Positions 27,942 to 48,661 of a stretch of 64,000 bases of DNA are shown in pieces. Under the pieces are notes generated by a model. It saw only the letters and a list, made by a program, of their open reading frames with translations. It did not search any database and was not told where the DNA came from. The DNA lies in the NCBI GenBank assembly GCA_965217585.1, contig OZ244561.1, positions 4,352,001-4,416,000 on the forward strand, given 5' to 3'. Origin of the DNA: Candidatus Latescibacterota bacterium. GTDB lineage: Bacteria; Latescibacterota; UBA2968; UBA8231. Position 1 is the first letter of the stretch; the number at the start of each line of letters is the position of its first letter. The translations under genes were made by a program, and so were the position numbers.

Positions 27942-27962
27942 GGCTTTGTTGCATGAAAACCG
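27942..27962 (-). promoter_or_regulatory. Conserved upstream motif, copy 2
   Basis: 21/21 identity to 21709-21729, in the same orientation relative to the paralogous gene. Confidence 0.6.
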
Positions 27963-28121: not shown

Positions 28122-28895
28122 CTATCCCTGGGGCGCGGCGGTCACCTGTTGCACTGCGTTCCTTTCGATTTGTTGCTCGAATTCGAGGACGATGTCCACT
28201 GTTTCTATGGGCTGTTCGGAAGCGTCGAATTTCAGGACGAAATCCTTGAGCACCAAGCGCACCTGCCGCACTTCCTCGTCGAGCGGTTCAAAGGCCAGCA
28301 AACCAGTGTAGTTTTCTCCCTTGAACACTTTCTGGTCCTCTATATAAGCGGTGCTGCGCACATTGCCCATGCGCAGGTCGAAACGGTAGAATTCGTTGCC
28401 GCTCTGGCCCCGGATGGCCCGGTAGTAGCGCTCGAAACTATTGTGCGGCGAGAAAGACGGCAGGCCAAAGGAATGTAGCACCTCGCCCCGATCAGTGTAG
28501 AGCAGGGCCTCGATGGGGTCCAGCATGACCTTGGCGTACACATCGTTGGTGACGCTGATGCGGAATACAGTGAAGCGCTTGGGCGTATGGCCCACGAGCG
28601 GGTCGATCCAGTCCCCGTACGTATAGGGGTTGGTGGAGAAGAAACCCCGGTGCGAGTCCTCGGGGAATATAGCGTTCAATTCCGCGTCTGTCATGGACTC
28701 GACTTTGACGCGCAAGCCTTCGATGGCGTAGGTGACGGATCCCTCCACCTCCACCTCCACCACATAGTCTTTCGGGCTGGCCTGCTGGGCACTGGGGACC
28801 AAGTCGTTGCTGTACAGGATATTGGGCGGCGTGAAGAAACTGCACCCGCTGAAAACCAGCAGTAAGGCGGCAAAACGCATGATCGCGTACCTCAT
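28122..28895 (-). CDS. Putative lipoprotein of unknown function
   Basis: Lipobox-like LLVFSGC; overlaps the upstream gene (ATGA). Confidence 0.75.
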   Translation of the reverse strand: MRYAIMRFAALLLVFSGCSFFTPPNILYSNDLVPSAQQASPKDYVVEVEVEGSVTYAIEGLRVKVESMTDAELNAIFPEDSHRGFFSTNPYTYGDWIDPLVGHTPKRFTVFRISVTNDVYAKVMLDPIEALLYTDRGEVLHSFGLPSFSPHNSFERYYRAIRGQSGNEFYRFDLRMGNVRSTAYIEDQKVFKGENYTGLLAFEPLDEEVRQVRLVLKDFVLKFDASEQPIETVDIVLEFEQQIERNAVQQVTAAPQG

Positions 28896-30127
28896 TGGCT
28901 ACTGACCTGACGGTAAAAGTCGATTTGCTGCTGGGCGATGGATCCCTCTTGGGTGAGGGCGAAAATAACGGCATTGATGCCAAAGCGCAATTGCGGCTCG
29001 TTGCCGTACAACTGAGCCCAGTTGTGCACGTATCCCTTGTCCGAATAAATTCCCACCAAGCGGTTGTCCAAGAAAATCCCCTCGAGGTTGTACACCGACT
29101 CGGCAATAGTCTGGAAATTCTGGCCTCGCTGATCGGCAAAGGAGCCGACCTGCAATTCCGAACCGACGGGCGGACCGTCGAAATCGTAGAACGTGTGGTA
29201 AATGGGATGCGTATTGTGAATGGGCCGCAGGGTCCCCTGGGCACCCAAGGCATCGCGGAAAATCTGCCGCAGCGAGGCCTCGGCTTGGCTGAACTCGAGC
29301 GTGGGGGTGGCGTTGTCGACAAAAATAAAACCCCCGCTGCGCAGGTAAGCGCCCAAGTTGTGGATTTCGCGCTCGGTCAGTTCAAAAGCCTCGTTCGCGG
29401 TGATGTACACAAAAGGCGTGCGGAAGAGCTCCTGCGAATCGAGGAAGAGATGCTCGTCTACCTTGGCGGTGATGCCCGTCTGCTCATTGAGCGCATCGAC
29501 CAGATTGGGCATGGCTTTGGCGGCGCTGTCAAAGATCGGCTCCAGGTCCGTGGCCCAGGCCGTGCCCAGATAGACGAAGCCCATGACGTTCTTCTTGTCC
29601 GTCGGGTCCTGGATGATTAGGCCCTTGTACTTGCCGGTGTCCAGCGCATCAAGGTCGAGCAATTCTTCGCGCATGGCAATGCGCTTCTCCGGCTCCTTGG
29701 TACCCTTGACCCGGGCGGCCGACAGCTCGATGGGAGTGGTCTGCAAATCGATCTGCACGTCGGCTTCCACGGCGTATTCGAAAGTCTCAATGCGGCCGAA
29801 CACCGAGGCACCGGGCAGGCGGCGGGTCGTGGGCGTAGCCAGCCGGGGTTTCATGGTGGTCACCTGCTTGGTCATGGCCCGGGGGCGCAGGCGTTGGCGT
29901 TTGAGGGCAAAGGGCTTGGTCGATTTGGGCTTGCGGATGATGAGCCGGGTGACCGCCGGCTGAGGCGCGGCCCGCTCCTTGCCCACCACGATGAAATAGG
30001 CTATCCCCCCCGACGAGGACACTAGGGCGATGACCAATCCCCAGATGGTGGCGCGATAGGTCTTGAGCAGGCGACTCAAGCGCAGTCCGTCGCTCGGCAC
30101 CCTGAAACGACTTTGGTCTAGCGGCAT
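28892..30127 (-). CDS. Membrane-anchored DUF4159 domain protein
   Basis: N-terminal TM and a TonB-like basic/Pro linker; PFVYIT, NLGAYLRSGGFIFVDN, HPIYH.FYDF and GIN...FALT motifs. Confidence 0.85.
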   Translation of the reverse strand: MPLDQSRFRVPSDGLRLSRLLKTYRATIWGLVIALVSSSGGIAYFIVVGKERAAPQPAVTRLIIRKPKSTKPFALKRQRLRPRAMTKQVTTMKPRLATPTTRRLPGASVFGRIETFEYAVEADVQIDLQTTPIELSAARVKGTKEPEKRIAMREELLDLDALDTGKYKGLIIQDPTDKKNVMGFVYLGTAWATDLEPIFDSAAKAMPNLVDALNEQTGITAKVDEHLFLDSQELFRTPFVYITANEAFELTEREIHNLGAYLRSGGFIFVDNATPTLEFSQAEASLRQIFRDALGAQGTLRPIHNTHPIYHTFYDFDGPPVGSELQVGSFADQRGQNFQTIAESVYNLEGIFLDNRLVGIYSDKGYVHNWAQLYGNEPQLRFGINAVIFALTQEGSIAQQQIDFYRQVSSQ

Positions 30128-30144
30128 GGGATCCTATCCCTATT

Positions 30145-30528
30145 CTAGGGCACTTCTAAGATAAAGGGCTCGGATTGCGGCCCGAAAAAATCGCGGGCGT
30201 CGACCGCCCACACGCGAATCTGCCAAACGGTCCCCGCTTCGGTACTCAACGATCCATCGTCGGCAAAGGCGCGGGCTTCCGGATCTGCTACTGACTTAGT
30301 CTCCATGCCGCCGCTGGCGTCCGTGAAGCTGACGACGAAACCGGCGACATTCTCCGCGGTGGCCATCTGCCAGGACACGCTCACGGCCCCTCCCTCTACC
30401 CCCGCCTGCACATCGGTGGGTTGGGCGAGGAGACCTCGATGGTACTGGGAAGGCATCTCCGTGTCGTTGCTGCAGGCGACTAGGGCCACCAGCGCCGTTC
30501 CCGCAAAAAGGCGTATCGCTCTATACAT
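30145..30528 (-). CDS. Lipoprotein with fibronectin type III-like domain
   Basis: Lipobox LVAC; P.DVQA...VSVSW...GFVV...IRVWAVD...S pattern. Confidence 0.7.
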   Translation of the reverse strand: MYRAIRLFAGTALVALVACSNDTEMPSQYHRGLLAQPTDVQAGVEGGAVSVSWQMATAENVAGFVVSFTDASGGMETKSVADPEARAFADDGSLSTEAGTVWQIRVWAVDARDFFGPQSEPFILEVP

Positions 30529-30553
30529 GCCCGAACTCCTTACAAGGATGCGG

Positions 30554-31105
30554 TTAAAAACGGGCCACTAAGCCCATGCCCGGGGCGTTGCCAGCGGCCA
30601 TGGGCACCAGATTGACGGCTTTGCCCGCCACGGGCGCGCCGCCGTAGAACAGCACGTCCAGCACATTGTAGCTGTACGTCGCCAAGCTCAGGACGCCAAA
30701 GACGCGGCGCAACAGATGGGACCGGTCGAGATCGTCTTTCTTGCCCGCCAGTCGTTGCCAACTCTCCTCGGCCTGGGCAAAAGTGCCAGCATCCCGCAAC
30801 GCTTGGTAGCGCTCCTTTTCCAGTTCGAATTGCACTTCCTGGGTATTGAAGTCTTCGTGCGACGTCAACCAGATCACCAGACAGCCCATCTCGGCTACCA
30901 TCAGGGTCGTGCCCTTGGGCTTGTGGCCGGTGGCCAACTGGCCCAATCCGGGAAAGATCAGGGATAGACCAACAGCCTGCGGGCGCGAGACGCCGCTCTG
31001 GCGCTCCTCAAAGCGCTTTGCCGGCGCCTCCTGGGCCCAGAGCCCTTGGCTGGCGAGAAGCAACACGGCGCTGCCCAAAATGGCCGTCAGGGGTCGTATC
31101 AACAT
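30554..31105 (-). CDS. Exported/membrane protein (DUF5683-like SL..PGLGQ motif)
   Basis: Signal peptide, LSLIFPGLGQL..G, Y.YN.LD and a C-terminal Phe. Confidence 0.65.
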   Translation of the reverse strand: MLIRPLTAILGSAVLLLASQGLWAQEAPAKRFEERQSGVSRPQAVGLSLIFPGLGQLATGHKPKGTTLMVAEMGCLVIWLTSHEDFNTQEVQFELEKERYQALRDAGTFAQAEESWQRLAGKKDDLDRSHLLRRVFGVLSLATYSYNVLDVLFYGGAPVAGKAVNLVPMAAGNAPGMGLVARF

Positions 31106-31153
31106 AGCCAAATCCTCATTTGTCGTCTCTACCTCCGGCGGTGCAAAACAAAT

Positions 31154-34100
31154 TCACAAGCGCGTACTGACGATCCAATCCCGGTGCGACTTGGCAAATT
31201 GGAAGGCTTCTCGCGAAGCCCGTTTGTCCTCGTACAGGCCGATGACTTGGTCGTATACTTCGACGGCGTCTTTCCACTTGTTCAGTCCCTCCAGACACAC
31301 GCCCAAGTTGCTGAGAGATCCCAAGGCGCTCTCGGTCTCGGGGTAGCGCTCCATCACCTCCTCGAAAACCTCTATCGCCTCCTTGAAATAGCGCTGCTCT
31401 TTGGTCACATCGGCCGAATCCATCAGGGCCAGGCCCCGCTCGTAGAATTCGTAGGCCACCGACTCCTCCAACTCGGCGATCAGGCGGGGGACCTGCTCGG
31501 CCACCGGCGCGTCGGCGTAGCGCTCCCGCACCTTATTGTACGCGTCTATAGCCTCCTGATATGCCTGGCGGTTGTACGCGTAATCGCCCAGCGTAAACTG
31601 CGCCGAGGCGGCGAATTCGCTCTCGGGATAGCGGCGCAGCAATTCGGCCATGGCCTCCATGGCTTCTTCATCGCGCTTTAACTCGATGAGGCACCAGGCC
31701 TTGTTGTAGTGGGAGTTGTCCGCCGACGTCTCGGCGGGGAACTCGGCGAGGATGCGGTCGTACAGACCGAGCGCTGCGGCGAACTCCCCGAGCTGATAAT
31801 AACTTTCGGCCGCGCCAAAGAGCATATCCGGCAATTCGCGCGCTCGCGGGTAATCGCTCAACAGCCCGAGGAACTCGCGCTGGGCGTCCTCGAATTCGCG
31901 CATGCTGTAGTGCGCGTTGGCCAAGTAGAAGCGCACCAGTAGGTCCTGACTCGGCTCGAGGCCAGCCTGGCGCAGGGTGCCAAAGACTTCCTTGGCCCGG
32001 TCGAGCTGGTCTCGGTCGAAGTAGTGGATGCCCTGCGCCAAGCGCATATCCGTGGCGAATTCCGATTCGGGATACTGGTCTAGGACTCGGCCAAATACCT
32101 CGACCGCTTCATCCCCCCGCCCCAAACGCGAGAGGGCGTCCCCCAAAACGAAGTACGCACGCTCTCTGAGTAGGATGGTCTGACCGGGGCCCAATTCGTC
32201 GGCAAAGGACAAACCGAGCACTCGCCGGGCAAGGCGGACGGTCTGCCCGTAGTCGTCGCGCTCGTAGTACAGATCCATCATGCGGCCCAAGATTTCGGCC
32301 TGCTCCTCCGGGGTCTCGGCATTGGTCACCATATCGTCGAGGACCTGTATGGCCTCGCCGCCCCGGTCCTGTTTCAGGTAGGATAGGGACAGAGCGTTTT
32401 CCGCCGAGCGCACTTTCTCTGGGTCTTCGACATGGTCAATGATCCATCTGAAGTCCTCCTCGGCCAGGGAGTAGTTTTCCACGACAAAGGCCGTATTCCC
32501 CCGGCTGAAGCGCAACGCTTCTTCCAGCCTGCTGCCGCCCCGGACGTGCTCGAGGGCCTGCGAAAAGTGGTCGATGGACCGCGGGTACGCCCCCTCACCG
32601 CTATGCGCCTGTCCTATCAGATAGTGGAAACTAGCTCGCTGGCCAGCGTCGGCCCGCTCCAGACCCGCTATTAGGACTGGAATGGCCTCGGTTAACTGGC
32701 CCTGGGTCACCAGGGTATGGCCGCTGCCCAGCCGCGCTCGGGCAAAATGGGGCGACTCTGGGTCGACGGCCAAAAGAGCCTGGATGGCTCCATCTGGATC
32801 GCCCAAAGCTTGGCGAGCCAAGGCCAAGCGCATATAGGCGTCGGCGGCGTAATCGCTTTCCGGGAAGCGGTCCAACAATTGCCGCGCCCGCTGTGCTGCC
32901 GCCTCGTATTCGCCGCGTCCGTAGTACAGTTCGCCCAATTGCACCAAGGCGCGCTGCACATAGCCCCGGTCGCGTCCTTCCCCGACAATGGCTTCAAAAG
33001 TGCTCTGAGCCCGGTCGAGAGCCTCCTGACCACCCTGCGACTGGTGCGCTAGGGCGCGATTGAAACGGGCGTCCAAGCCATAGGGCGAGCCCTCATCGCT
33101 CAGCACGGTATCGTATTGGGCGATGGCCCGATCGAGCAAGTCGCTGGCACCGGCTTGGTCGTCCTCGCCCAGCCGCGCCTGGGCCATCTGCTGGTACGCG
33201 CTGCCGATGCGATAGCGCACCCGTTCGAGCGAAAAACCCGCGCCGCCGGCAATATCGCCATAGCCCCGGAGATAGATGCGGTATTCCTGGATCGCCTGCT
33301 CATATTGGCCGCGGGCGAAGAGGCGCTCGGCCAAGGCATATTGAATGCGCGCCCTCAGGGTGCGATCGGTCGATTGGTCAATGGCCTCGCGGTACGTCTG
33401 CAGGGCCGTCGCCAGATCGCCCTGCTCTTGGTAGAGATCGGCCATGCGCAAATAGGCCTCTTCGACCAGACGGCGCTCCGTGCTAAAGAGGGCGATCACC
33501 CGCCGATAGGCCGCCAGCCCCTCGTCGTACCGCCCCAGCTTGGTGAAACAATTGCCCACGCGAATCTCGGCCTTGGCCGCCAGCTCCAGCGCGGTTTCGT
33601 CGACCAGACCGGCCAGTTTCTCCCGCCGCATCTGATTGAGTTGCTCTTCGGTGAGTTCCTCGATGCGCTGGCCTTTGACTAGGCGGCGGTAGTGTTCAAT
33701 GGCCTGTAAGTACTCGCCCTGTTCCTGATAGGATTCACCTATCTGAAAGAGGCTGCGGTCGGCTTGGTAACCCGTGGGATAGAGTTCGAGCAACTCTTTG
33801 AAGGCGGCAATCGCCCGGGTGTAGTTCTGCATTTCGTAAAAGGCCCAGCCCCGGTTATAATAGCCGCCCACGGCTCGCGGCTCGCCCGGATAGGCCGCGA
33901 TCATGGCGTCGGCGGCCTCAATCACTTCGAGGTAGCGCCCGGCTTCAAAGTACAGATCGACCAGCCGGCCAAAGGCCTGGACGCGCAACACCTGGTTGGC
34001 GGCCGTTTCGCTGACCTGGCGGAAGGCCCTCACCGAGCGGGCAAAGGCGCTGTCGGCCTGCGCCTGAAAGCCCTCTCGGCGCTCCGGATCGCGCGCCTCC

Positions 34101-34402
34101 CCGGCAAAGCGGGAAAAATCGGTGAAGAGCTTGCTGTAAGCATTGCCAATCTGGTAATTGGCGGCTTCCAGCACGGGAAAACTCTCCGATCCCACGCTCA
34201 CCGAGATCTTCTGTGTATCGAGCAAGCGGCTGCGCACCTGCAGGACTTCCTCATAGCGGACAATGGCCTGATCGTACGCGCCCTCGGCGTAAAATGCCTG
34301 GGCGTCGCGGAAGGAAGCCACCAAATCGTCCCGGTTCGGGGTGCGCGCGGCAAACTGCGTCCCGAGGACCGTGACCAGAGCTAGGACAAGGACGAGATTC
34401 AT
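31154..34402 (-). CDS. Large exported tetratricopeptide repeat protein
   Basis: Signal peptide; many TPR units of the A...F..LL..YP.S type; SD AGGAGG before ATG 34402. Confidence 0.9.
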   Translation of the reverse strand: MNLVLVLALVTVLGTQFAARTPNRDDLVASFRDAQAFYAEGAYDQAIVRYEEVLQVRSRLLDTQKISVSVGSESFPVLEAANYQIGNAYSKLFTDFSRFAGEARDPERREGFQAQADSAFARSVRAFRQVSETAANQVLRVQAFGRLVDLYFEAGRYLEVIEAADAMIAAYPGEPRAVGGYYNRGWAFYEMQNYTRAIAAFKELLELYPTGYQADRSLFQIGESYQEQGEYLQAIEHYRRLVKGQRIEELTEEQLNQMRREKLAGLVDETALELAAKAEIRVGNCFTKLGRYDEGLAAYRRVIALFSTERRLVEEAYLRMADLYQEQGDLATALQTYREAIDQSTDRTLRARIQYALAERLFARGQYEQAIQEYRIYLRGYGDIAGGAGFSLERVRYRIGSAYQQMAQARLGEDDQAGASDLLDRAIAQYDTVLSDEGSPYGLDARFNRALAHQSQGGQEALDRAQSTFEAIVGEGRDRGYVQRALVQLGELYYGRGEYEAAAQRARQLLDRFPESDYAADAYMRLALARQALGDPDGAIQALLAVDPESPHFARARLGSGHTLVTQGQLTEAIPVLIAGLERADAGQRASFHYLIGQAHSGEGAYPRSIDHFSQALEHVRGGSRLEEALRFSRGNTAFVVENYSLAEEDFRWIIDHVEDPEKVRSAENALSLSYLKQDRGGEAIQVLDDMVTNAETPEEQAEILGRMMDLYYERDDYGQTVRLARRVLGLSFADELGPGQTILLRERAYFVLGDALSRLGRGDEAVEVFGRVLDQYPESEFATDMRLAQGIHYFDRDQLDRAKEVFGTLRQAGLEPSQDLLVRFYLANAHYSMREFEDAQREFLGLLSDYPRARELPDMLFGAAESYYQLGEFAAALGLYDRILAEFPAETSADNSHYNKAWCLIELKRDEEAMEAMAELLRRYPESEFAASAQFTLGDYAYNRQAYQEAIDAYNKVRERYADAPVAEQVPRLIAELEESVAYEFYERGLALMDSADVTKEQRYFKEAIEVFEEVMERYPETESALGSLSNLGVCLEGLNKWKDAVEVYDQVIGLYEDKRASREAFQFAKSHRDWIVSTRL

Positions 34403-34436
34403 GTGCCGATGCCTCCTGTGGAAAAGTAAAAGCTCA

Positions 34437-37400
34437 TCACTCGTATTCAAATCCCAGAATCACATTTATATAGGCGGCGATAAATTCCACATTGGCCTCG
34501 TCAGCCACATCCAGATCGTCGAACTCCTTGACGCGGCGGCGGAGACCCATATTGGTCGAGATCAGATAGCCGAAGTACTTTGAATCGTTGGTCACCATAA
34601 ACACAATATCGCTCTGCTCGAAGTCCCGGCGCGCGTCGGCCAGATCGTTCACGCTGTAGGGGAGCAGCGACCCCAGTCCCTGGACGCCGAGTTGGAATCG
34701 GGTTCGGCTGGTCAGGCGGTACTCCAGCTTGGTCAGCGGGATCAGATTGCGCTCGTGCAGGGTGGGCAACTCCAGGCTGCGTCGCCACTCTTTGAGGTAG
34801 CGGAATTTGAAACCGGCGAAAAGGGTCAACTGATCGGCCAGCGGCCAAGTATAGTCGACCTTGTGCACCATGGCCCAGCGGCTCAGACGCTCGCTCTCTT
34901 GGAAGGTGCCGTCGAAGAGTTCGCCCTCGCGCTGGGCATTGATCTCGTACTTGACTTTATTGCGCATATTGAGCCGGGGGATCGCATTCCAACGGGCGTC
35001 GGTGAAAAAGCGCAAATATCTGCTGGCCTTGAAGAGCAGTGGATCATAGCGCTCCTCTTCGACAAAGGGGGCGAGCTGGATATTGCGCTGGAAGCCCGGG
35101 AAATCGAGTTCGAATAGTTCGGCCGTGGTCAGCACCCGGTCGCTGTACACGCTCAGCGGATCCTCCACCCCGTCCTCAACTTCCTCCAGCGAGGCAACGG
35201 CAAAAAACTGGCCCACCGCCGGTACTTTGCGCCAGTAGGTCAAGCGGGTGTAGAGTACGTCGCTGGGGGCCCCGCCGGCATTCTGTGCGGCATCCATCAA
35301 GCCCACGGACCAAGTCAGACCGGGCGCTGGGTTGAACTGGCCGTACACGTGCAGCCCGCGCAAGTCGGGATCGTACGGATAATCCGGGTCGGTGTCGTTC
35401 TCGCGCGCGTCGAGGAAGTCGTTGTGGTTCATGTCGAGGTCGTAGTCGTAGACCTGGGCGTCGACATCGTACATGAGGAAGGGCTCGATATCGTCCGGCG
35501 TGCCGTTGATGTTCTTGTTCTGGTCTGGATAGCCGTCGTGGTCCTCGTCCAGGCCCGGGAAAATGCCGTCGATGTCGGACTGGCCCAGGAAGAACATGCC
35601 CGGACTGGCGTGGTTGGTGTACCAGCTATCGGGGAAGCGATCGTTGTCGTCGTTGTCCTCGACCAACCGGTGGATGAGGGCGTCGTTCTGGGTGATCAGA
35701 CTCCCCGTACAGCAACCTTCGTCGCGGCCGATAAAAGAGCGCAGCTCAGTATTGTAGTGCGGCCCGATAGAAAAGTATTCGCCGCCGAAGCCCCACAGCG
35801 GAAAGTCGCGCTTCACCGTGACGTAGAAGGCGTTGTCGCTGATAGTGCCGCGCTTGCCGGGACGCACCTCGCGGTCGAGGGCGTTGATGCTGAGCGCGTC
35901 CCTGGGCACCCGCACCCCGGGAGGACCGCTCACGTACTGGGAATAGCTGTTGCTGCGGGCGAATTCGGCGTTGATCTCAAAACCCTTGAGCACGCCGTAC
36001 ACATTGGCGCTGTACAGGCGCACCCCTGTGGGCGTGCCGGCCCGGACCCGCACCCGCTCGACCGGCTCCTGCGGCGATGGCGTGCCGTCGGCCCGCGCCA
36101 CCGTGCGGAAGAAGGAGGCATAGCGGTACTTGTCGCGGTAATTCGAGTCGGGCTCGTTGGGCTGTATACCCCCGATATCGATCTCCGACAGTTCGACGTG
36201 GTAATCGCCCGAGATGAACAGGTCGACGTCGACCGACTCGATCCACTCGCCAAAGGGCTCCAGATCGACGTAGAGAATGCCGTACTCCCGGCCGTCAAAG
36301 GCCTGCGGCAGATCGGCCCGGGTGTGCAGACCGAGAAACTGTCCATCGGGGTTTTCCGCGCTGCGCTCGGCCTCTTCGTGGGCGAACTGCTCGTGCACGG
36401 TGATGGGGTCTTCGTCCTCGCGCTCGGCGTTGATCGCGTAGTCCGGGCCGAACAACTTGAAGTCGCGGTAGTAGAGGTGGGCGATCCAGAAGGGGAACTC
36501 GTAGCCCCGGTAATAGACATCCGCGTCAAAGGCCGCGTAATTAATGTACGGGTCGTACGTGCTAGCGATGGCACCCCGGTTGATCGACTGGTAGTCGTTG
36601 CCGGTGCGGGGAAGGGGCTTGCGCTCGCCCGAACGGAGCAGATCCTGGGCGTAGGGCTGGCGCTCGGCCCCGCGCGTATCCAAGCGGACGATGAAGGGCT
36701 CGAGTTCTGGCTGTAACTCGCCGTTGACATATACGTCCACTCGGTGCAGCACCGCCCCGGTCACCCCCAGGCCGGGGGCGTCGTCGGCAATGCGGATGGC
36801 CAGCAGGGCCGGGGCGTTCTGGGCCGCCCCAGCCACCCCTTTGAAGGACAGGTCGTTGCTCGACATCAGCGGCTCGAATTGGTGGGCGTTGACAAAAGTG
36901 CCGCCAAAGTGGAGAAAACCCACTTGGCGCTCGTAGTGCGCCCCGCCGATGAGAGCACCGGGGATGACCCCGCCGCCGCCCGTGTGGCGGTTTCTCGAAA
37001 TCAGGGCCGAGAAACTGTCCCGCCCGGTGCCCATGTCGAACCGCAAACCGTCGAGATTGGCCATCTTGAAGGTCAGGGGCGTAAATTTGGTGCGAATCTC
37101 ATTGGCCCAGATGACCTTGGCCTGCCAAGCGTCGGTGCCGTCCGTGCCCACAATGACATTGTTGAACAGCCGTCCAAAGGCGACCCCGGCCTGACCGTGG
37201 CTCCCCCCTTCGCCTATGGAGGAGAATCCGCGCTGGGCGCCCAGTCCCCGGCGCTCCCGCCAGTTGACCGAGTTCGAGCCGTAGATGAGGAAATCTCCTA
37301 AATCGCTGTAATAGGGCCGCAGCGTATTGGTAAAGGGTGGCAGCCGGGGGTATTCGGCAAAGCCGTAATTCTGGTAGAGCGTCTCGTCGTAGCGCCCCAC

Positions 37401-37565: not shown

Positions 37566-37566
37566 A

Positions 37567-40359
37567 TCAAAACAGGGGTCTCAGGCCGGCGATCATGCGC
37601 AGGAAAACGCGCGAAAAGTCGATACCCTGGTCGTGGCGCGACCGGTCCTTGAACTTGCGTGTGCTCCTCTGATAACCCACTTCGACATTGATCTGGTAGC
37701 CCGTGTACGAGGATTTGTTGGTCACCAAGGCCACGTAGTCCTCCCCGTCGAAATCCGCTCCCGGAGCCGCCTTGTTGCGATACAGGCTCTTGAGAAAGGG
37801 CAAACCCTGGGTGCCCACCTTCACGGAGGTGCGTTTCGAAATCGGGTACTCCATCCGCAAGATGGGATAGACGAAGTCCTCTTCAATCGGCAGTACTTGG
37901 CCCTCGTCGTCGAGGCGCTGGCGCAACCACTTGAACTGCAGCATCACCCCCAACTGCTTCCACGGCATCCACAGATAATCGGCCTTGAAGACCGTGGCCA
38001 GATCGGCGATGCGGTTGTCCGGCTGGAGGGGCGTGCGGCGCTGGAAGTTATTTTCCGACTTCAGGCTCACCTCGACATTGAGATTGGACACGCGGATGAA
38101 GCGGGTGCGCATATAGAAGGTATTGACCCAACTATCGCGCATCAGCAGTGGATCGACCAGCAGCCGCGATGTGCCCAGCGGATGGCGCAATTCCTCCTGG
38201 GTGGGCAGGCGCAAGGGGATTATATCCGGGGTGAAGTATATGGGATCGCGCCCCAGGCCAAAGACTTCGTCCGCAATCTCGTCCCGCACCCTCTTGAGCC
38301 GCTCGACAGCGTAGATCTCAACCAGGAAGGGCAGGCGGCGTTCGTGCTCGTAGCGGCCGTAGTACACTTCGGCCTGATCGCCGCCAAAGGGCGCCCAGGT
38401 CCGGTGGTAGCCCAGGGTCACTTTCATGCCCGAACGCGGCCGGTAGCTACCAAAGCCGTGCAGCCCTCGTCGGTCCTGGTCGTACGGGTAATCGGGCTTC
38501 AAATCGTCTTCGCGCTCGTCGATGACGCCGTTGTTATTGGTATCTTCGCCGTAGTCGTACGCGTCGGGATTGACCCCGTAGAGCAGGAAGGCTTCGTAGT
38601 AGTCTGGGATGCGGTTGTTGTTCTCGTTGATATCGGGCCGGCCATTCAAATCGGCGTCGAGTCCAGGGAAGATGCCGTCGGGATCCTCGATGAAACGCCC
38701 GCCCGCCAGGCTGGTGGTTTTACGCAGGAAAAAGGTGTCGGGGAAGGGGTCTTTGTCGTCGTTGTCGTCCACTGTATCAAATTCGAGGGTGCGGGTGGCG
38801 TCGGCCCGGTTGGGGCCGAGGAAATCCGGCAGTCTGGGCTCCTGGAAATTGGTGGGGAACTGGAAGGGGCTGTTGATCAACTGGAAATAGGTCTGGTACG
38901 AGTCATCCTGCACGGACAGGCGGGTGGTGTACTCAGCGTCTATGTTAAAGGCTTCGCCGCCCAAACTGAAGCGCCCGAGATCGCGCCGCAGTACGGCGAA
39001 CCAAGCCTGGCTCTGATCGAGCTGGTGCCGGCCCAGGGTGCCCAGCAGGGCCGGATAGGCGCGGTACGAGAAATTGCGCACGTACTCAGTCCGCAGCGAG
39101 TACCCCTTGATGTCTATATTGGCATGCACGCTAGCTAGGGTGCGCCCGGTCTCCCGGCCGTAGCGCACTCGCACTCGGCGGAAATTGTCGAGGTTGTCGG
39201 GCTTGCCCTGCGCCTGCCCGGCGGGGTAGAAATAGGTCGCGGGGTTAAAAGAGGCCCCATCGAATATCTCCGACAATTCGAGCAGATAATCCCCGGCCAC
39301 GTCGATCTCTATAGCGGCTTTGTTGACGATGAGGGTATCGAGCCCGTCGATAAAGGAGGAAGGCACCTGGAACCAGAACAGCAGCGACCCCTCGCCCCGA
39401 GTTTCATAAACTCCCTGCGGGGTCGGCTCGATGTGTGGAAAGTTGATGGCTAGGTCGTTGCTCGAGTCGCGGAAAATCGGCGGAATGATGGTGCGGTCCG
39501 GGTGTTCGGTGACCGTGAGTCGCAACGCGCCCGTGTCGAGTTTGTTGTAGGGTCCGAGCACGTGCTCCAAGCGGCGGCCGTTGAGCGCGACGCCCGCCCT
39601 GCGGACCCGCACGCCGATGGCGTCGTTGGGGTCTTGGTCGGCCACGCGCAACACCAGCCACAGGGGGGGAGCCCCGGTGGTGGGCAGGGTCCCTTTGAAG
39701 CTGTTCTCGCCGAGCGTCTTAAAACTGTCGGTGCGGTACTGGTTGACCCAGCTCACGCCCAGATCCAGGCCCGGCCGCTTGGTGCGCAGGTCGGCGCCCA
39801 GCAAATAGGTACTCCACGACGGCCTGAACTGCGAACCCTCGCGGCCGTGGACCACGAAGTCAGCATTTCTGATGGCCTCGAAAATGGGTCGATCGACGCG
39901 CGATACAGCCAGCACCAGCGAGGCGTTCTTGAAGTTGCTGTCCACCCGGAGCCCGTTCATAGCCGCCAAGTCGAGGGTCAGCGGAGTGAATTTGGTGCGG
40001 ATGCGATCGCCGATAATCAGGCGGGTGTCCACGCCTTTGTACGAGTCGTTGGCAATGACTAGGCGATTGAGAAAATCACCGTATTGCCGCTCCTTGCCGA
40101 TGATGCTTCCGGGCGTGGTCTGCAAGGTGCGGAATTCCTGCAGTTCAAAGACATTGACCCCGTTCATCACGAACTGCCCCATATTGTCGAACTGCGGCGT
40201 GCGATCGCGGCCGAATACCAGACTCTCATACGGCCGGTATCCCTCGTACGCATAGTTGCGGTACGGCTCGGTGTTGCGGATGATCAACTGGGCATCCACT
40301 GCCGCGCCGCACGCTAGGGCCAGGGCCAGGAAGGCTAGATGTCGGTTCGCGCCGCGCAT
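37567..40359 (-). CDS. Large exported (probable outer-membrane) protein with Asp-rich repeats, paralog B
   Basis: GDRIRTKFTPLTL, VDDNDDKDPFPD, GIFPGLDADLNG, REDDLKPDYPYD and GTQGLPFL motifs. Confidence 0.8.
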   Translation of the reverse strand: MRGANRHLAFLALALACGAAVDAQLIIRNTEPYRNYAYEGYRPYESLVFGRDRTPQFDNMGQFVMNGVNVFELQEFRTLQTTPGSIIGKERQYGDFLNRLVIANDSYKGVDTRLIIGDRIRTKFTPLTLDLAAMNGLRVDSNFKNASLVLAVSRVDRPIFEAIRNADFVVHGREGSQFRPSWSTYLLGADLRTKRPGLDLGVSWVNQYRTDSFKTLGENSFKGTLPTTGAPPLWLVLRVADQDPNDAIGVRVRRAGVALNGRRLEHVLGPYNKLDTGALRLTVTEHPDRTIIPPIFRDSSNDLAINFPHIEPTPQGVYETRGEGSLLFWFQVPSSFIDGLDTLIVNKAAIEIDVAGDYLLELSEIFDGASFNPATYFYPAGQAQGKPDNLDNFRRVRVRYGRETGRTLASVHANIDIKGYSLRTEYVRNFSYRAYPALLGTLGRHQLDQSQAWFAVLRRDLGRFSLGGEAFNIDAEYTTRLSVQDDSYQTYFQLINSPFQFPTNFQEPRLPDFLGPNRADATRTLEFDTVDDNDDKDPFPDTFFLRKTTSLAGGRFIEDPDGIFPGLDADLNGRPDINENNNRIPDYYEAFLLYGVNPDAYDYGEDTNNNGVIDEREDDLKPDYPYDQDRRGLHGFGSYRPRSGMKVTLGYHRTWAPFGGDQAEVYYGRYEHERRLPFLVEIYAVERLKRVRDEIADEVFGLGRDPIYFTPDIIPLRLPTQEELRHPLGTSRLLVDPLLMRDSWVNTFYMRTRFIRVSNLNVEVSLKSENNFQRRTPLQPDNRIADLATVFKADYLWMPWKQLGVMLQFKWLRQRLDDEGQVLPIEEDFVYPILRMEYPISKRTSVKVGTQGLPFLKSLYRNKAAPGADFDGEDYVALVTNKSSYTGYQINVEVGYQRSTRKFKDRSRHDQGIDFSRVFLRMIAGLRPLF

Positions 40360-40360
40360 A

Positions 40361-43015
40361 TCAGCCAATATACACCTTGAAAAAGTACTCTATATAGCCC
40401 GCCGACGGACGCAACGAGCCGGAGAATTCGGTAAAAGTCCGAAAAAATCCCATGAGAATGGTCAGGTCATAGCCGCTGTAATTGCTCCTGTTCTGCAGAA
40501 AACCAGTATAGGTATTTTTGCGGAAATCGCGTTCGGGGTTGGCCGGATCAATAGAGCGCTCGGGCAGCAAGGGGAAGCCTTGGACGCCCGTCTTGAGGAG
40601 GGTATTGGGCGTTATGCTGTAGTCGACTTGCAAAATCGGGATCAGCCGGCGCGTCTGGCTGTCGGGGATCTGGCGATCGGGAAATTTGCTGCGCCGGTAC
40701 GTGTGCTTAAAGCGCGGCACAATTTTAAAGCGCTGCCAGTTATAGGTGTAGTCTATCTTGTTGGCTATGGCAAAGTGTGTAATGGTCCCCGGCGATGCCA
40801 GCAGGGGATCGGCCGCGGCTTTGTCGCTCAGATCGACATGCTTGAAGGTGGCGATAGTGCGGATGTTCATCCCGGGCACGGTCCACAGGCCCCACTCGAC
40901 ATAGGTCAGATTGTCGATTGCGTCGCGGTTCTCGAGCAGATCCTGCTGCAGCGAACTCTGGTTGCCAAAGTTGAAAACCGTATTGGGGATGCCGTCTTGC
41001 ACCCACTTGATCCGGTGGTTGGCGCGCACATAACCCAGATCCTGCCAGTCGCGCTGGTACTGGCCCTCGATGTATTCGGCGTCGCTGTCCAATCCCAGGG
41101 TGGGCTGTTCCATCCGGTACGCGCCCAGGCGCAATTGGGCGTGTGAGGTCGGATTGTACCTGAGAAAAGCGTGGAAACCGCGGTGGTCGAGCGGGTACAT
41201 ATAGTCCGCGAGATTGTCGTTCTCCCTGAGGTCGGGCATACCGTTGTTGTTGAAGTCGTCGCCAAAAGACAAATCGGGCGACTCCACGTGGTACTGCAGA
41301 AAAGGCGAGCCCGAGCCCGTGGCCGCAAAATCGAGAATGCCGTCGCCGTCGAGATCTAGGCCCGGAAAAACGCCGTGGCCCACGCCTTGGGAATCGAAGT
41401 AGGGATCAAAGGGATCGTTGTGCTCCAACTCGTCGGGCCAATCGTCGAGATCGTCGTTGTCTTCGACTAGGGCAAAAGGCTGGTACAGCCTGCCGCCCAC
41501 AGTTGGCCCCGCGCCCGAGCTCTGGAATATGGGGAATTCCGTATTGTAGTCGTCCGGCATGTCGAACCACTCACCGCCCGCGTCGACCCGGTCGTGCAGA
41601 GACTTGAGCACATTGAAGTAAAAGACCGAAGAATCGCGCTCCCGGCGCTTGCCCCGGTCGGTGGGCATTTTGAGGTGGTTCGTGCTGCGGGCAAATTCGC
41701 CCTTGATCTCAAAGCCGAGGATCTGGGCATCGAAATCCAGGCCCATGATGCTCAAACCCGTGGGAAAACCGTAGCCGAAGCGCACCTGGCGCAGATTCGA
41801 TCTGTTGCTCGGATGACCCTCCGCCCGCAGAGCGTGGTGCCAATCGTAGTAGAAGTCCTCCTCGCCCGAGGCCAGGAAGGGCACCTGCACCGCGCCGACG
41901 ACATCAACGCTGTAGTCGTCGGCCAGGAGGGCTTCAAATTCGATGTCAGAGACCGTATCCGGCACAGCGAATTGGTAAAAGACCACATCGGCACCGCTGG
42001 CCCGCAGCGGCGCACCTCGGGTGGGCGGGCGCACCTCTCGGGCTATGTCTTCCAACACGGCGGCGAAAAAGGGCCGATTGCTGGCCTCAACCACGGGTTG
42101 CAGCCAGGACTGGTTGCGCCGCAGATAGTCGATTTCGTTGGGCTTGATCTGGATCGTGCTGGTCAGGTCCGGCGTTATGGTGAGCCTGTTGATGAGCTGG
42201 TCGATACGCGCCACCCGCAGCGGCTCGACCAAGACGCCGTCGGCCCGCATGACCACTTGGTGGATCTCCGCCCCTGCGAAAGAATCGTTGGGCGCGTCGT
42301 CGGCAAAGAAGACGAATACGGTTTTCAAGCCGCCCTGGACCAGCCCGGGGACCGCGCCTTTCAAGCCGTTGATCTTGTCCGAAGCTTCCGAATCAAAGCG
42401 GTGCGTATTGACAAAGGTCGTGCCGAGGCGCAAAAAATCGCCTATGCGGCTCTGCCAATGTCCGCCAAAGAGCGAGGTGCCGAAAACGCGGAAATTCTGC
42501 ACGGCGTCGTCGGGGGCCAAGGAGCCGGTGCGAAATTCGAGGGGGTTGGTCAGGTGGGCGGCGACCATGCTAAAGCTGCTCTTGCGCGACGAGCCGTCCC
42601 AGCGGATGCCGTTGAAGCGGGGCAAGTTCAGGGTCATGGGCGTGAAATATGTCCGCACGTGGTCGCCGATGATTAGGCGCGTCGACCAGCGGCCAAAGCC
42701 CTCTTCGGCCATGACGAGCTTGTTGAAAAATCCGTCGTACCGACCGCTGCGCGATTCAAAGCTGCCCCTGACTCCAGGCGCGTCGCGGCGCACTTCGCTG
42801 AATTCGAGGATATCGACGCCGTCGATGAGCAAATCGCCAAAGAGATCAAAGCGGCGGTTCTCCTCCTCGAGGTCGTAGTTCCGGTACCCGGCCCCGCCGT
42901 AGTTCTCAAATACCTCGTTGGCCCATAGCGAGCGAAAATCCCGCGACAGGAACTGGCTGCGAGCCTCCTCGGCGGTCAGGGTCAGGCAGAGCAGAAAGAC
43001 AGAGAAAGCACGCAT
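40361..43015 (-). CDS. Large exported (probable outer-membrane) protein with Asp-rich repeats, paralog A
   Basis: GDHVRTYFTPMTL, VEDNDDLDDWPD, GVFPGLDLDGDG, RENDNLADYMY and GVQGFPLL motifs; alternative start at 43066. Confidence 0.8.
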   Translation of the reverse strand: MRAFSVFLLCLTLTAEEARSQFLSRDFRSLWANEVFENYGGAGYRNYDLEEENRRFDLFGDLLIDGVDILEFSEVRRDAPGVRGSFESRSGRYDGFFNKLVMAEEGFGRWSTRLIIGDHVRTYFTPMTLNLPRFNGIRWDGSSRKSSFSMVAAHLTNPLEFRTGSLAPDDAVQNFRVFGTSLFGGHWQSRIGDFLRLGTTFVNTHRFDSEASDKINGLKGAVPGLVQGGLKTVFVFFADDAPNDSFAGAEIHQVVMRADGVLVEPLRVARIDQLINRLTITPDLTSTIQIKPNEIDYLRRNQSWLQPVVEASNRPFFAAVLEDIAREVRPPTRGAPLRASGADVVFYQFAVPDTVSDIEFEALLADDYSVDVVGAVQVPFLASGEEDFYYDWHHALRAEGHPSNRSNLRQVRFGYGFPTGLSIMGLDFDAQILGFEIKGEFARSTNHLKMPTDRGKRRERDSSVFYFNVLKSLHDRVDAGGEWFDMPDDYNTEFPIFQSSGAGPTVGGRLYQPFALVEDNDDLDDWPDELEHNDPFDPYFDSQGVGHGVFPGLDLDGDGILDFAATGSGSPFLQYHVESPDLSFGDDFNNNGMPDLRENDNLADYMYPLDHRGFHAFLRYNPTSHAQLRLGAYRMEQPTLGLDSDAEYIEGQYQRDWQDLGYVRANHRIKWVQDGIPNTVFNFGNQSSLQQDLLENRDAIDNLTYVEWGLWTVPGMNIRTIATFKHVDLSDKAAADPLLASPGTITHFAIANKIDYTYNWQRFKIVPRFKHTYRRSKFPDRQIPDSQTRRLIPILQVDYSITPNTLLKTGVQGFPLLPERSIDPANPERDFRKNTYTGFLQNRSNYSGYDLTILMGFFRTFTEFSGSLRPSAGYIEYFFKVYIG

Positions 43016-43071
43016 AGGCTCGACGAATCTCTCAGTTGCGGCACCAATAGCTGTTGTACCAAACACATCCG

Positions 43072-45201
43072 CTAATAGGCCAATCCCACCACTCCGGTTA
43101 CAATTTCATCGTCGGGGTCCAGATCGACGATGACGCGGTAGAGGTATAGCCCTGGCGACAACAATTCCCCGCTGTCCGAGCGCCCATCCCAGCGGCCCGG
43201 CAACGGCCTCCCCCCACTCCCGATCGGGGCGTACAGGCCGGCGTCCAACGACTGGCCGGGTAGGGTGCGCACCAACCTGCCGCCCAAATCGTACAATTCG
43301 ATATAGACTCGGCCCCCCTTAACGCGTGCCAGGGTGAAGCCCAGCACCACCTCGTCATTGATTCCATCGCCGTTGGGGGTGAACACCTTGGGATGGGCCT
43401 CGACATCGGCGAGAATGGGCAATTTGAAGTCAATGGTCACCGCGGTCAGCGAATATTCGCGTTCAGTGTCGGGATCAACGCCCTCGAGCGGCTGCACCAA
43501 AAAGGGCGAAGTGGACTCCGGGGCGAAAACCAGTCCCTGGAAATTGTGGGTAGCAGCCAGCATGCGGGTGGTGAAGGGAATGAGTAGATCGGCGTCGGCA
43601 CCGATGGGCGGGTCAAAGGCTATGATCAGGGAATCGTTAGTCGCGTACGTATTGGCCGCGTCAATGGCGGTTCTGTCCACCCCCTCTATGCCGTCCATGT
43701 CCAGGCGCGCCGGCCACGGCGTCAGGATGGCCAGACGCGACACTCCCGCGTCGTCATCGCCAAAGCGGAGCACGAGCGAATAAGTGAAGGTCGTATCTAC
43801 GCCAATGGGCACTTCCAGCGGTACCACTGCGGCCAGGGCCTCGGCTGCAGCCAAATTGCCCGTATTGAAAGACACCTCTAGGCTGTCGAGGCGCGGACCG
43901 CTGGCCAGTTCGCCGGTCGCCATGCGCACCTGGTACTGGAAGAAGCGCCGCGGTTCGGGGACATTGGGCAGAATTTCCCGCTCCCGGCTCCAGGGCGACC
44001 AATCGCTCCAAGTCTCCCCGTCGCTGCCGCTGCGGAAGCGCAGATCCATCTCGGCTTTGGGCGGGACATCCCCGTACCAGCGCACTCGCCCGAAGTCCTT
44101 GTTGTCCTCTAGGCCAAAATCCAGCGGCGGCGACAGGTACGTCCCCTGCTCAACCACACCTTCGCCGAAGACTTCGATCTCGCCTACCCGGGGGTTTGAG
44201 TTGCGATTGGCAAACTCGGTCACCACTAGGCGTACAAAGCGCACCGGCGTGGTGGGAAAGAAGACCTCGGTCTCTTGGAATTCGGTGATCTGGTTGCGCG
44301 CCGCCACATCGAGGAAGCTGACCCCATCCTTGCTCACCAAGATGCTGTACCCGCGCAACGAGTGTTCCTCCCAGGTCAGCCGCGACGGCGGCTGGGTGAG
44401 CACTCGCACCCGGTTGACCGGGAAGAGGCGGCCCATATCGATCTCGACCTCCTGCAGCAGGGCGCTGACCCCTTTGCGGAAAGTCACCGGGGTGTTGACG
44501 CTTCCGTCGACGAGCTTGGGTTCGTCCGAGAAGGTGTTGAAGGCGAGATTCTCGCCCTCCAGCGAGCGCAGTTGCAAACCGCCCCCGCTGGGATCCATAT
44601 CGCCGGGAAAACCGGCTAGACTCTGGGCCCGCGTCAGATCGAGGTCGGCAAATTCGGCAAAATCGCTCGGGTCGAGACTGCTGGCTTGGGAGGGCAACCA
44701 CCTGACCTCCAGACCGTCCTCCTCGTGTTGGGCCAGTTTGTTCTGCTTGATCTCGGTCCAATCGGCTCCTTCTTCGTTGGGCAGCGGGAAACCCGTCCAG
44801 AACCACGGCGTTATGCGATCCGTGGGCGAACTGACGAACTGCACGTCCTCTGCATCGATCACCAGGAAAAAACCGTATTCGGGCCGCGTGCCGCTGTACT
44901 CCACCGCCACCGCAATGATATTGGCCCGCCGCTTAAAAGAGGCCTCCCACGTCTCCACGGTCGTCGGATCGTCGTCAGTGCCCACCAGATCGCCATTGAG
45001 GTACAGGGCGTACTTACCGCCGGCGGCAATGCGCATCTCGCCATCTGCCTTGGCGGCGAATTCAGCGTAGCCCAGATAATAGGAAGTAGCGGGAAAAGTA
45101 CTGATGGTAGTGCGTTCTTGCGCGGCGAGATGGCCTGGCAGCATCAACAAGGCCGCTCCGACTACGAGCCACTTTAAACTCTTCGCTTGTGTTACGCTCA
45201 C
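43072..45201 (-). CDS. Secreted discoidin (F5/8)-like domain protein with C-terminal FTPNGDG(IND)/FlgD-type sorting domain
   Basis: Signal peptide; IDMGR...VNRVR..., RFVRL...EIEVFG; VFTPNGDGIND...WDGR..SG....PGLYLY. Confidence 0.8.
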   Translation of the reverse strand: MSVTQAKSLKWLVVGAALLMLPGHLAAQERTTISTFPATSYYLGYAEFAAKADGEMRIAAGGKYALYLNGDLVGTDDDPTTVETWEASFKRRANIIAVAVEYSGTRPEYGFFLVIDAEDVQFVSSPTDRITPWFWTGFPLPNEEGADWTEIKQNKLAQHEEDGLEVRWLPSQASSLDPSDFAEFADLDLTRAQSLAGFPGDMDPSGGGLQLRSLEGENLAFNTFSDEPKLVDGSVNTPVTFRKGVSALLQEVEIDMGRLFPVNRVRVLTQPPSRLTWEEHSLRGYSILVSKDGVSFLDVAARNQITEFQETEVFFPTTPVRFVRLVVTEFANRNSNPRVGEIEVFGEGVVEQGTYLSPPLDFGLEDNKDFGRVRWYGDVPPKAEMDLRFRSGSDGETWSDWSPWSREREILPNVPEPRRFFQYQVRMATGELASGPRLDSLEVSFNTGNLAAAEALAAVVPLEVPIGVDTTFTYSLVLRFGDDDAGVSRLAILTPWPARLDMDGIEGVDRTAIDAANTYATNDSLIIAFDPPIGADADLLIPFTTRMLAATHNFQGLVFAPESTSPFLVQPLEGVDPDTEREYSLTAVTIDFKLPILADVEAHPKVFTPNGDGINDEVVLGFTLARVKGGRVYIELYDLGGRLVRTLPGQSLDAGLYAPIGSGGRPLPGRWDGRSDSGELLSPGLYLYRVIVDLDPDDEIVTGVVGLAY

Positions 45202-48660: not shown

Positions 48661-48661
48661 G

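Follow-up and report, generated by a model that had tools for sequence, protein, structure and literature searches.

Organization of the gene cluster

The stretch of DNA analyzed here, 64,000 nucleotides (nt) from Candidatus Latescibacterota bacterium (assembly GCA_965217585.1, contig OZ244561.1, positions 4,352,001 to 4,416,000; hereafter the window, whose own numbering is used throughout), carries nine tightly packed open reading frames (ORFs; g1 to g9, Table 1) on the minus strand between 28122 and 45201, with intergenic gaps of -14 to +42 bp. All nine encoded proteins have an N-terminal signal peptide, a lipobox or a transmembrane (TM) helix, and three of them, g2, g3 and g4, are giant paralogs predicted to form beta-barrels. 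A preliminary description of this DNA, made from the sequence alone, had listed nine co-oriented, closely spaced genes with export signals or membrane anchors; every one of its ORFs was located at the positions it gave, and its sizes of 885 and 1080 aa for g2 and g5 fit internal start codons within longest ORFs of 901 and 1098 aa. The best explanation for the nine genes is that they form the main block of one copy, designated type A below, of a trans-envelope system that occurs in multiple copies and mainly in Latescibacterota. We found no publication on this cluster system.

Table 1 Features of the window discussed in the text.
Feature	Position	Strand	Description
g1	43072-45201	-	Exported protein, 709 aa; Pfam F5_F8_type_C (discoidin), 31 bits (cutoff 28.2)
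g2	40361-43066	-	Giant predicted barrel, paralog 1; 901-aa ORF, signal peptide from internal Met
g3	37567-40368	-	Giant predicted barrel, paralog 2; 933 aa
g4	34437-37565	-	Giant predicted barrel, paralog 3; 1042 aa
g5	31154-34450	-	Exported tetratricopeptide repeat (TPR) protein, ~1,080-1,098 aa; many TPR Pfam models
g6	30554-31111	-	Small DUF5683-like membrane protein; 19.5 bits (cutoff 26.7)
g7	30145-30528	-	127-aa lipoprotein, FN3-like; lipobox LVAC/S (cleavage at the stroke)
g8	28892-30127	-	Bitopic inner-membrane protein; Pfam DUF4159 (PF13709), 100.7 bits (cutoff 25.9)
g9	28122-28895	-	257-aa lipoprotein with lipobox; short form of its family
g10	25999-27954	-	651 aa; type IX secretion system (T9SS) type A sorting domain TIGR04183, 37.1 bits (cutoff 23); FlgD_ig
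DUF6785/DUF6784 protein	23954-25891	+	Polytopic membrane protein, 9 TM segments; Pfam
Second T9SS-tailed protein	21820-23751	+	TIGR04183, 35.3 bits (cutoff 23)
Second DUF6785/DUF6784 paralog	12780-14741	+	Polytopic membrane protein
W333	9425-10426	-	Exported 333-aa protein of no known family
ExbB/TolQ-type proton channel	8646-9392	-	Pfam MotA_ExbB (PF01618), 100.3 bits
ExbD/TolR-type gene, first	8205-8621	-	Pfam ExbD (PF02472), 95.9 bits
ExbD/TolR-type gene, second	7792-8208	-	Pfam ExbD (PF02472), 103 bits
IS605-type OrfB/TnpB	45886-47073	-	OrfB_IS605, Cas12f1-like TNB domain, helix-turn-helix
Ldh_2, first ORF	47737-48708	-	Malate/L-lactate dehydrogenase, profile positions 1-103
Ldh_2, second ORF	47589-48281	-	Malate/L-lactate dehydrogenase, profile positions 119-332
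AAA_15/AAA_21 ATPase	53636-55108		Within low-GC island 52000-58000
Sigma-54 activator	55758-57254		Beside the ATPase
AAA_21/AAA_15 ATPase fragment	63150-63944	-	Near window end
DUF5916-matching ORF	4881-6110	-	409 aa; first 96 of 572 profile positions
SelB	1760-3661	+	Selenocysteine-specific elongation factor, complete

Besides its discoidin-type domain, g1 ends in a sorting-like tail that matches CHU_C below cutoff (21 bits against 27). The long TPR protein g5, a candidate periplasmic scaffold, is kept across all cluster types (tblastn) and matches 20 NCBIfam families, all of generic TPR type, with repeat-driven, sub-cutoff matches to YbgF/CpoB (the strongest), BamD and PorW/SprE. The small g6 falls short of the DUF5683 cutoff in the window, whereas its orthologues exceed it (27.7 and 31.4 bits); since eight type-A loci have no counterpart of g6, it is an accessory part. 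Likewise accessory is the lipoprotein g7, whose orthologue in locus L047 gave an fn3 match (E 4.5e-5, 24 bits) just under the cutoff of 25. A tenth gene, g10, is also a member of the conserved cluster; its ESM Atlas scores were all below 0.9, leaving an NHL-like propeller as a lead only. A predicted complex of g2 residues 39-901 with g1 residues 596-709 scored 0.00, which we count neither for nor against binding.

A family of giant barrels

The products of g2, g3 and g4 share 27-30% identity (BLASTP E-values of 2e-65 for g2-g3, 2e-70 for g3-g4 and 1e-45 for g2-g4), and their alignment contains all the motifs by which they had originally been recognized as tandem paralogs: IRTxFTPxT, V(E/D)DNDDxDxxPD, G(I/V)FPGLDxDxxG, RE(N/D)DxxxDY and GxQG. 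The early impression that they lie outside characterized families was borne out, with no Pfam or NCBIfam match for any of the three and no match in profile searches of PDB sequences with the barrel alignments. An AlphaFold2 model of g2 built from a 30-sequence alignment (mean pLDDT 75.8, pTM 0.72) predicted the barrel that had been anticipated, and a very large one, with ~26-28 long antiparallel strands of 10-18 residues each (DSSP) running from about residue 70 to the C-terminus, a mixed alpha/beta insert at about residues 226-405 and a low-confidence acidic loop (533-627) bearing DNDD and DxDxDG-like motifs. Counted from the C-terminus, short turns alternate with longer loops in the model, which would place the acidic loop on the extracellular side. 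Loops of this DxDxDG-like kind could, we presume, bind Ca2+ and serve envelope stability.

The model has no globular N-terminal domain or plug, residues 30-69 being disordered (pLDDT <50), and the Pfam Plug domain had no match at E<=0.01 in the paralogs nor at E<=1 in 30 family members. Homology to the barrel of TonB-dependent receptors (TonB_dep_Rec) was likewise absent from the Pfam and NCBIfam searches, and Foldseek comparison with transporter chains gave query-based TM scores (TMq) of 0.19-0.22. As regards a TonB box, the element by which TonB-dependent transporters bind the TonB C-terminal domain, all barrel groups have a conserved N-terminal extension, modelled at pLDDT <50. It carries the motifs YxNY, lGxxLxxG, ExR and GS, common to the barrels of the clusters and to the lone barrels described below.

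In a Foldseek search of the g2 model against the PDB the best matches were MtrB (E 1.9e-9, TMq 0.29) and Deinococcus SlpA (E ~6e-9, TMq 0.20), followed with weaker E-values by LptD, TonB-dependent transporters, SusC, FimD and SprA (TMq <=0.3; SprA, E 8.2e-5, TMq 0.21). Membership of the SlpA type was considered and rejected: SlpA_C matches were weak throughout (14.9 bits at best in the window against a cutoff of 35; 6 of 30 family members, best E 4.2e-4, all under cutoff) and no SLH domain was found. Searched in the ESM Atlas, g3 retrieved only clusters of hypothetical proteins, most often labelled Latescibacterota, plus a weak lead to DUF6029 (0.90, 164 shared features). With only generic barrels returned by Foldseek and no PDB profile match, g2, g3 and g4 are thus predicted to be very large outer-membrane barrels of a new family, described in none of the libraries searched.

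Distribution and conserved gene order

From clusters made at 50% identity, a profile of the barrel family retrieved 935 representatives at E<=1e-3, and 301 when the threshold was set to E<=1e-30, with nothing more specific than "hypothetical protein" among the source names inspected. The organism labels were mostly Candidatus Latescibacterota, with a few Gemmatimonadetes and single matches in Dehalococcoidia and Omnitrophota, in keeping with the lineage link proposed at the outset. A scan centred on g4, with each species represented by one genome, gave at least 594 confirmed stretches, from which 78 loci (L001 onward) were kept for comparison; by their metagenome-assembled-genome labels, 52 are from Latescibacterota, 15 from Gemmatimonadota and one each from four other phyla, and seven are unnamed. 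The closest, on Latescibacterota chromosomes (L001-L005), encode proteins 92-96% identical to those of the window.

The order g1-g2-g3-g4, with g1 immediately 5' of g2, recurs in 41 of the 78 loci (tblastn with the window proteins), so that the conservation of gene order that the preliminary description had made a test of its proposal was found. Two main arrangements could be distinguished. Type A, 45-75% identical to the window, reads g10-g1-g2-g3-g4-g5-(g6-g7)-g8-g9, and type B, 31-47% identical, reads g10-g1-g2-g3-g4-g6-g7-g8-[...]-g5-g9; further variants occur in L058, L060, L070, L074, L076 and L077. Both types coexist within single genomes (OZ252098.1, with L014, L025 and L038; OY730476.1, with L001 and L057). 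In a FastTree phylogeny of 160 barrels, from which the near-identical L001-L005 were left out, type-A and type-B sequences join in a g2 clade (support 100), a g3 clade (98) and a g4 clade (95), the last of which also contains most lone barrels. Because each of these orthogroups unites both types, the triplication of the barrel is older than the duplication of the cluster, and the fixed order of three anciently diverged barrels points to non-redundant roles. In L074 (g1-g2-g3-g1-g4) and L070 (g8-g9-g1-g4-g1-g2-g3) a second g1-like gene lies between barrels, suggesting that g1-type proteins pair with particular barrels.

The tenth gene occupies the position 5' of g1 in all 17 type-A loci that reach far enough; the window and its relatives L001-L005 alone have it 3' of g9. 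At the orthologous position of g10 in the window, directly 5' of g1, there is an IS605-type OrfB/TnpB gene, possibly a trace of the rearrangement by which g10 and the ExbBD block changed place in this lineage.

A proton-channel motor linked by synteny

One ExbB/TolQ-type and two tandem ExbD/TolR-type genes are encoded in the window behind W333, for which no Pfam, NCBIfam or PDB match was found; all three motor proteins stay under every NCBIfam equivalog cutoff for TolQ, ExbB, TolR and ExbD. The link to ExbBD, which the preliminary description had put forward, is supported by gene order in the related loci. Of the type-A loci, 21 extend far enough beyond g9 to be judged; in 19 of these W333-ExbB-ExbD-ExbD come next on the strand of g9, after which the strand changes. 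In five of 12 type-B loci a block of ExbB-ExbD-ExbD-DUF4340, together with a TPR protein of 424 aa, is inserted between g8 and g5. Judged by this synteny, the motor belongs to the cluster operon in the relatives and is displaced in the window, where it adjoins a transglutaminase-like gene and is separated from g9 by catabolic genes, two DUF6785/DUF6784 genes and two genes for tail-bearing proteins.

The lipoprotein g9 and its link to g8

Relatives of g9 come in a short form, as in the window, and a long form of at least 400 aa (L070, L076, L058) that extends beyond the shared core into a TonB-C-terminal-like (AgmX/PglI) domain. The NCBIfam model NF033768 (AgmX/PglI, cutoff 40) was exceeded in L070 (6181-7428, 60.9 bits) and L076 (8569-9972, 54.7 bits), and seven more long homologues scored 42-77 bits; the ORF of L058, cut off by the end of its locus, displays a like sequence pattern on visual inspection. 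TIGR01352 (tonB_Cterm) was passed by three of nine long forms, and some carry source names such as "energy transducer TonB" or "AgmX/PglI C-terminal domain-containing protein". An AlphaFold2 model of the long g9 of L070 (pLDDT 88) matched TonB/TolA C-terminal domains with probabilities of 0.89-1.0 and target-based TM scores (TMt) of 0.40-0.61, none at E<=0.001, its core resembling weakly MPT63/YjhA-type beta-sandwiches. The g9 of the window aligns with the core of one such homologue named "energy transducer TonB" (P0255; 46% identity, E 8e-73) and ends before the TonB-like domain. The idea that W333 is a TonB-like part detached from short g9 found no support.

In the window the start of g9 overlaps the stop of g8 by 4 nt. 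Two g9 homologues (P0320 and P0321) carry PF13709, and P0320 is a natural fusion of the g9 core (E 2e-50) with DUF4159 (E 4e-12 to g8), which ties g8 and g9 together. The g8 protein consists of a conserved cytoplasmic RFxAPSD motif, a TM helix (residues 30-48), a basic linker rich in Pro, Lys and Arg, and periplasmic DUF4159, on which our literature search returned nothing beyond the Pfam paper; it matches an uncharacterized protein in the PDB (4i66, E 7e-6). In TonB/TolA-type proteins a conserved N-terminal TM helix with a Ser/His signature couples to ExbB/ExbD. As an analogue of these proteins g8 was rejected, since its TM helix shows no conservation across 16 homologues, contains no His and lacks the Ser/His signature; the g9-DUF4159 fusion keeps it a candidate partner of the motor.

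Lone barrels, tail-bearing proteins and permeases

In about one third of the 78 loci the barrels, one to three in number, occur apart from the other cluster genes. These lone barrels are neighboured by genes for GFO/IDH/MocA oxidoreductases, xylose-isomerase-like TIM barrels, enolase-superfamily enzymes, DUF4838 and DUF2961 proteins, BNR sialidase-like proteins, PhyH dioxygenases, GDSL esterases and amidohydrolases, as well as FG-GAP/ASPIC proteins, gamma-glutamyltranspeptidase and a sodium:solute symporter. By analogy, their scatter looks like the genomic scatter of TonB-dependent receptor and SusC genes.

A tail-bearing protein stands immediately 5' of the barrels in every full cluster, and a g10-like protein directly precedes a lone barrel or barrel run in L046, L061, L063, L071 and L073. 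In L053 and L055 the order is tail-bearing protein, DUF6785, barrel, and DUF6785 flanks barrels in L023, L061, L063 and L073; no literature on DUF6785 was found. The two DUF6785/DUF6784 proteins of the window, with 9-11 TM segments, are encoded among genes for a sulfatase, GH4, a 3-keto-disaccharide hydrolase, an S15 peptidase and an epimerase. In the divergent cluster L034 a PorP_SprF-like gene (2259-3185, plus strand; 37.3 bits, cutoff 22.3) lies between g1 and g2, a hint that in some lineages g1-type proteins work with a partner of T9SS type-B-like kind.

Other features of the window

The Ldh_2 gene is divided between two overlapping ORFs in different frames (together 47589-48708) and is likely a frameshift or a pseudogene. 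In the low-GC island (GC 0.45-0.51, compared with ~0.6 elsewhere) the AAA_15/AAA_21 ATPase matched candidate defence models (PDC-M55A, 1.5e-45; NsnB, 3.6e-39; AriA, 2.3e-23) and lies beside a 341-aa protein without a match and the sigma-54 activator, and the ATPase fragment near the window end matched PD-T4-4_A (2.1e-27) and also PDC-M47A. The DUF5916-matching ORF may be a truncated or diverged outer-membrane protein. Having a complete SelB gene, the organism probably makes selenoproteins.

Proposed function and alternative explanations

We consider a proton-motive-force (PMF)-coupled import machine, Ton-like or Glt-like in architecture, to be the leading functional reading of the cluster, with a probability of roughly 0.4; physical assembly, a hetero-oligomer, energy coupling, the import direction and the nature of the substrate are inferred. 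In such a machine the three anciently diverged barrels g2, g3 and g4 would span the outer membrane, g1 and g10, with their T9SS-type tails and carbohydrate-binding-like or propeller-like domains, would sit at the cell surface, the TPR scaffold g5 and the lipoproteins g7 and g9 would occupy the periplasm, and the DUF4159 protein g8, the small g6 and the ExbB-ExbD-ExbD motor would reside in the inner membrane. The surface lectin-like proteins would capture a large substrate, most likely glycans or other polymers, and work done by the motor would pass through g8/g9 and the TPR scaffold to the unstructured periplasmic N-terminal extension of the barrels, gating them. The TonB-C-terminal-like domain may be the contact with this extension in the long forms of g9. 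Once opened, the barrels would admit the substrate, to be carried onward by inner-membrane permeases such as the DUF6785/DUF6784 proteins.

Several observations weigh against this proposal. No plug was found, leaving gating of the TonB-dependent-transporter type without a structural basis here. The g9 of the window and all 12 aligned type-A g9 proteins are short forms without the TonB-like domain, Pfam and NCBIfam scans of the window cluster proteins and of W333 gave no match to a model of the TonB family or its C-terminal domain, and the TM helix of g8, as set out above, is not conserved and lacks the Ser/His signature. The motor is not a constant neighbour either: two type-A loci (L014 and L021) have no adjacent full motor, for which masked sequence is not the cause, seven of 12 type-B loci lack one (the slot holding DUF4340, in six of the seven with a preceding opposite-strand transglutaminase-like gene), and in the window the W333-ExbB-ExbD-ExbD block (10426-7792) lies 17.7 kb from g9, on the same strand. 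Moreover, ordinary Plug-domain receptors and TonB/ExbB/ExbD are reported from Latescibacteria single-cell genomes (PMC4454575), so that an adjacent motor could serve those receptors. The catabolic neighbours of lone barrels are suggestive only, the g4-centred query biases which barrels look "lone", the genes of the loci were called with a home-made codon-usage caller, and the barrel tree gave long-branch warnings.

A bolder version of the import proposal, which we regard as rather unlikely, would make the system a third class of motor-gated outer-membrane importer, next to TonB-dependent transporters and SusCD, in which a hetero-trimer of plug-less barrels of ~26-28 strands with T9SS-anchored lectin-like lids would be driven by ExbB-ExbD2, a lipoprotein-borne TonB-like domain and a TPR strut, the lone barrels being substrate-specific satellites.

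The alternative that survives best, although unlikely, is a force transducer resembling the Agl-Glt gliding machine of Myxococcus, in which the motor would pull a three-barrel outer-membrane platform through the TPR and TonB-CTD-like (C-terminal-domain-like) proteins and so move, expose or tension g1 and g10 for adhesion, gliding or coat handling. Its parts can be paralleled one for one with those described in PMC11761067 and PMC3169522, type-B clusters add the 424-aa TPR protein, and long g9 proteins match GltG C-terminally (E 1e-7 to 7e-12) in addition to passing the AgmX/PglI cutoff. These GltG matches, however, cover the TonB-like domain only, at 14-45 bits against an equivalog cutoff of 650, and neither the FHA/TM architecture of GltG nor, for g5, anything but generic TPR models was seen. 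Outside myxobacteria, Luciano et al. 2011 (PMC3169522) describe a "core complex" operon, at times present more than once and of unknown function, in Fibrobacter and in Gammaproteobacteria, among them Saccharophagus degradans and Teredinibacter turnerae; the Glt barrels, on the other hand, are small, GltH having 209 aa according to the same paper, against 900-1,040 aa here. The dozens of lone barrels beside catabolic and permease genes fit transport better.

The barrels might instead be passive porins or SlpA-like structural outer-membrane proteins, only loosely related to their neighbours, with ExbBD serving ordinary TonB-dependent receptors or Tol-like envelope integrity. The recurrent sub-cutoff SlpA_C matches, the Foldseek similarity to the SlpA barrel, the possible Ca2+ binding by the acidic loops, the YbgF/CpoB match of g5 and the canonical TonB systems mentioned for the phylum are all compatible with such a role. 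We nevertheless find it distinctly improbable, as the operons lead from the barrels to ExbB-ExbD-ExbD without a strand change and then end in 19 of 21 cases, TonB-like and DUF4159 modules are fused to the cluster-specific g9, no SLH or OmpA-like peptidoglycan-binding domain was found in Pfam scans, and TM scores to SlpA are only 0.2. The weakest explanation is a secretion or anchoring device, with the barrels as translocon or anchor for the T9SS-type cargo g1 and g10 and as a lineage counterpart of SprA, PorV or PorP, for although tail-bearing proteins regularly precede barrels, g10 passes TIGR04183, L034 has its PorP_SprF-like gene and the T9SS likewise employs a PMF motor, the TPR lipoprotein SprE/PorW and a giant barrel (as the abstracts of PMC8754138 and PMC10202324 describe), no SprA, PorV or GldKLMN homology was detected among the window proteins scanned, the structural match to SprA is poor and many lone barrels stand without a tail-bearing neighbour.

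Latescibacterota, a widespread and uncultured group, degrade organic polymers, and we know of no described route by which they take large substrates across the outer membrane. The cluster is a concrete candidate for such passage and, were the bolder version true, a third importer class would account for their uptake of polymers too large for known transporters. Synteny wires a large unclassified barrel family (the 935 representative clusters) to a proton-driven motor, and this family would supply Pfam, NCBIfam and the structure libraries with very large barrels that they now lack. By combining the components of the gliding "core complex" of Myxococcus with a catabolic, Sus-like genomic setting, the cluster could also reveal what such core complexes do in non-gliding bacteria.

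Comparison with known systems

MtrB, LptD and Deinococcus SlpA gave the best structural matches and have a similar predicted number of strands, yet their TM scores are 0.15-0.29 at 6-11% identity, and the cluster has no cytochrome, LptE or SLH partners.

The comparison with Sus and T9SS made in the preliminary description stood as an architectural likeness and failed at the level of homology, with no plug, SusD or SprA homology found. As in the T9SS, a giant barrel, a TPR scaffold and a PMF motor occur together with cargo-type C-terminal domains on the products of adjacent genes, and Latescibacterota belong to the same superphylum as T9SS bearers. We found no literature on a T9SS in Latescibacter. 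The cluster differs in its ExbB/ExbD-type motor, in the missing homology to SprA, PorV and GldK/L/M/N noted above, and in having three barrels of ~900-1,040 aa in place of one SprA of ~2,400 aa (Foldseek chain lengths).

With TonB-dependent transport and SusCD the system shares a multi-copy family of outer-membrane barrels, often beside catabolic genes, a surface binding protein gene adjoining the barrel gene, a linked ExbB/ExbD motor and TonB-C-terminal-like domain, and a conserved N-terminal periplasmic barrel segment. Unlike TonB-dependent transporters, the barrels here have neither Plug nor TonB_dep_Rec and a predicted ~26-28 strands, against 22; no SusD model was matched by the cluster or flanking proteins, the partners here being T9SS-tailed proteins; and the TonB-like domain is carried by the lipoprotein-type long g9 and is absent from the window cluster. 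The three fixed tandem paralogs and the additional 1,100-aa TPR, DUF4159, DUF5683-like and DUF4340 parts also set the system apart.

The resemblance to Agl-Glt was absent from the preliminary description, whose nine-gene parts list held but lacked g10 and the TonB-like domain of long g9. According to PMC11761067 and PMC3169522, the Myxococcus machine comprises three outer-membrane barrels (GltA/B/H), the ~1,190-aa TPR protein GltD and the TPR proteins GltE and GltC, a motor (AglR/AglQ/AglS) homologous to TolQ and TolR whose subunit assignments differ between the two sources, the TonB-CTD-like GltG and GltJ, and a surface adhesin. PMC3169522 gives the core complex operon as aglR, aglQ, aglS, gltD, gltE, gltG and gltC; a GltG-type protein has an FHA domain, a TM segment, a Pro-rich linker and a TonB-CTD. 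Compared with the Glt barrels, those of the present cluster have four to five times the size and no sequence relationship, and neither cytoplasmic GltI nor MglA-linked parts were observed. Lone barrels stand in a catabolic genomic context, and g5 gave no sequence match to Glt proteins in a library whose coverage of GltD, GltE and GltC is unconfirmed. The likeness extends nonetheless to three outer-membrane barrels, very long and shorter TPR proteins, surface adhesin-like partners, the occurrence of several diverged copies in a genome, a motor with one TolQ/ExbB-type gene and two of TolR/ExbD type, and an AgmX/PglI-type TonB-CTD domain, here only in long g9. What is new in this system is the barrel family, while the ExbB/ExbD motor, the TonB-CTD-like domain, the TPR proteins and the T9SS tails are known modules reused.

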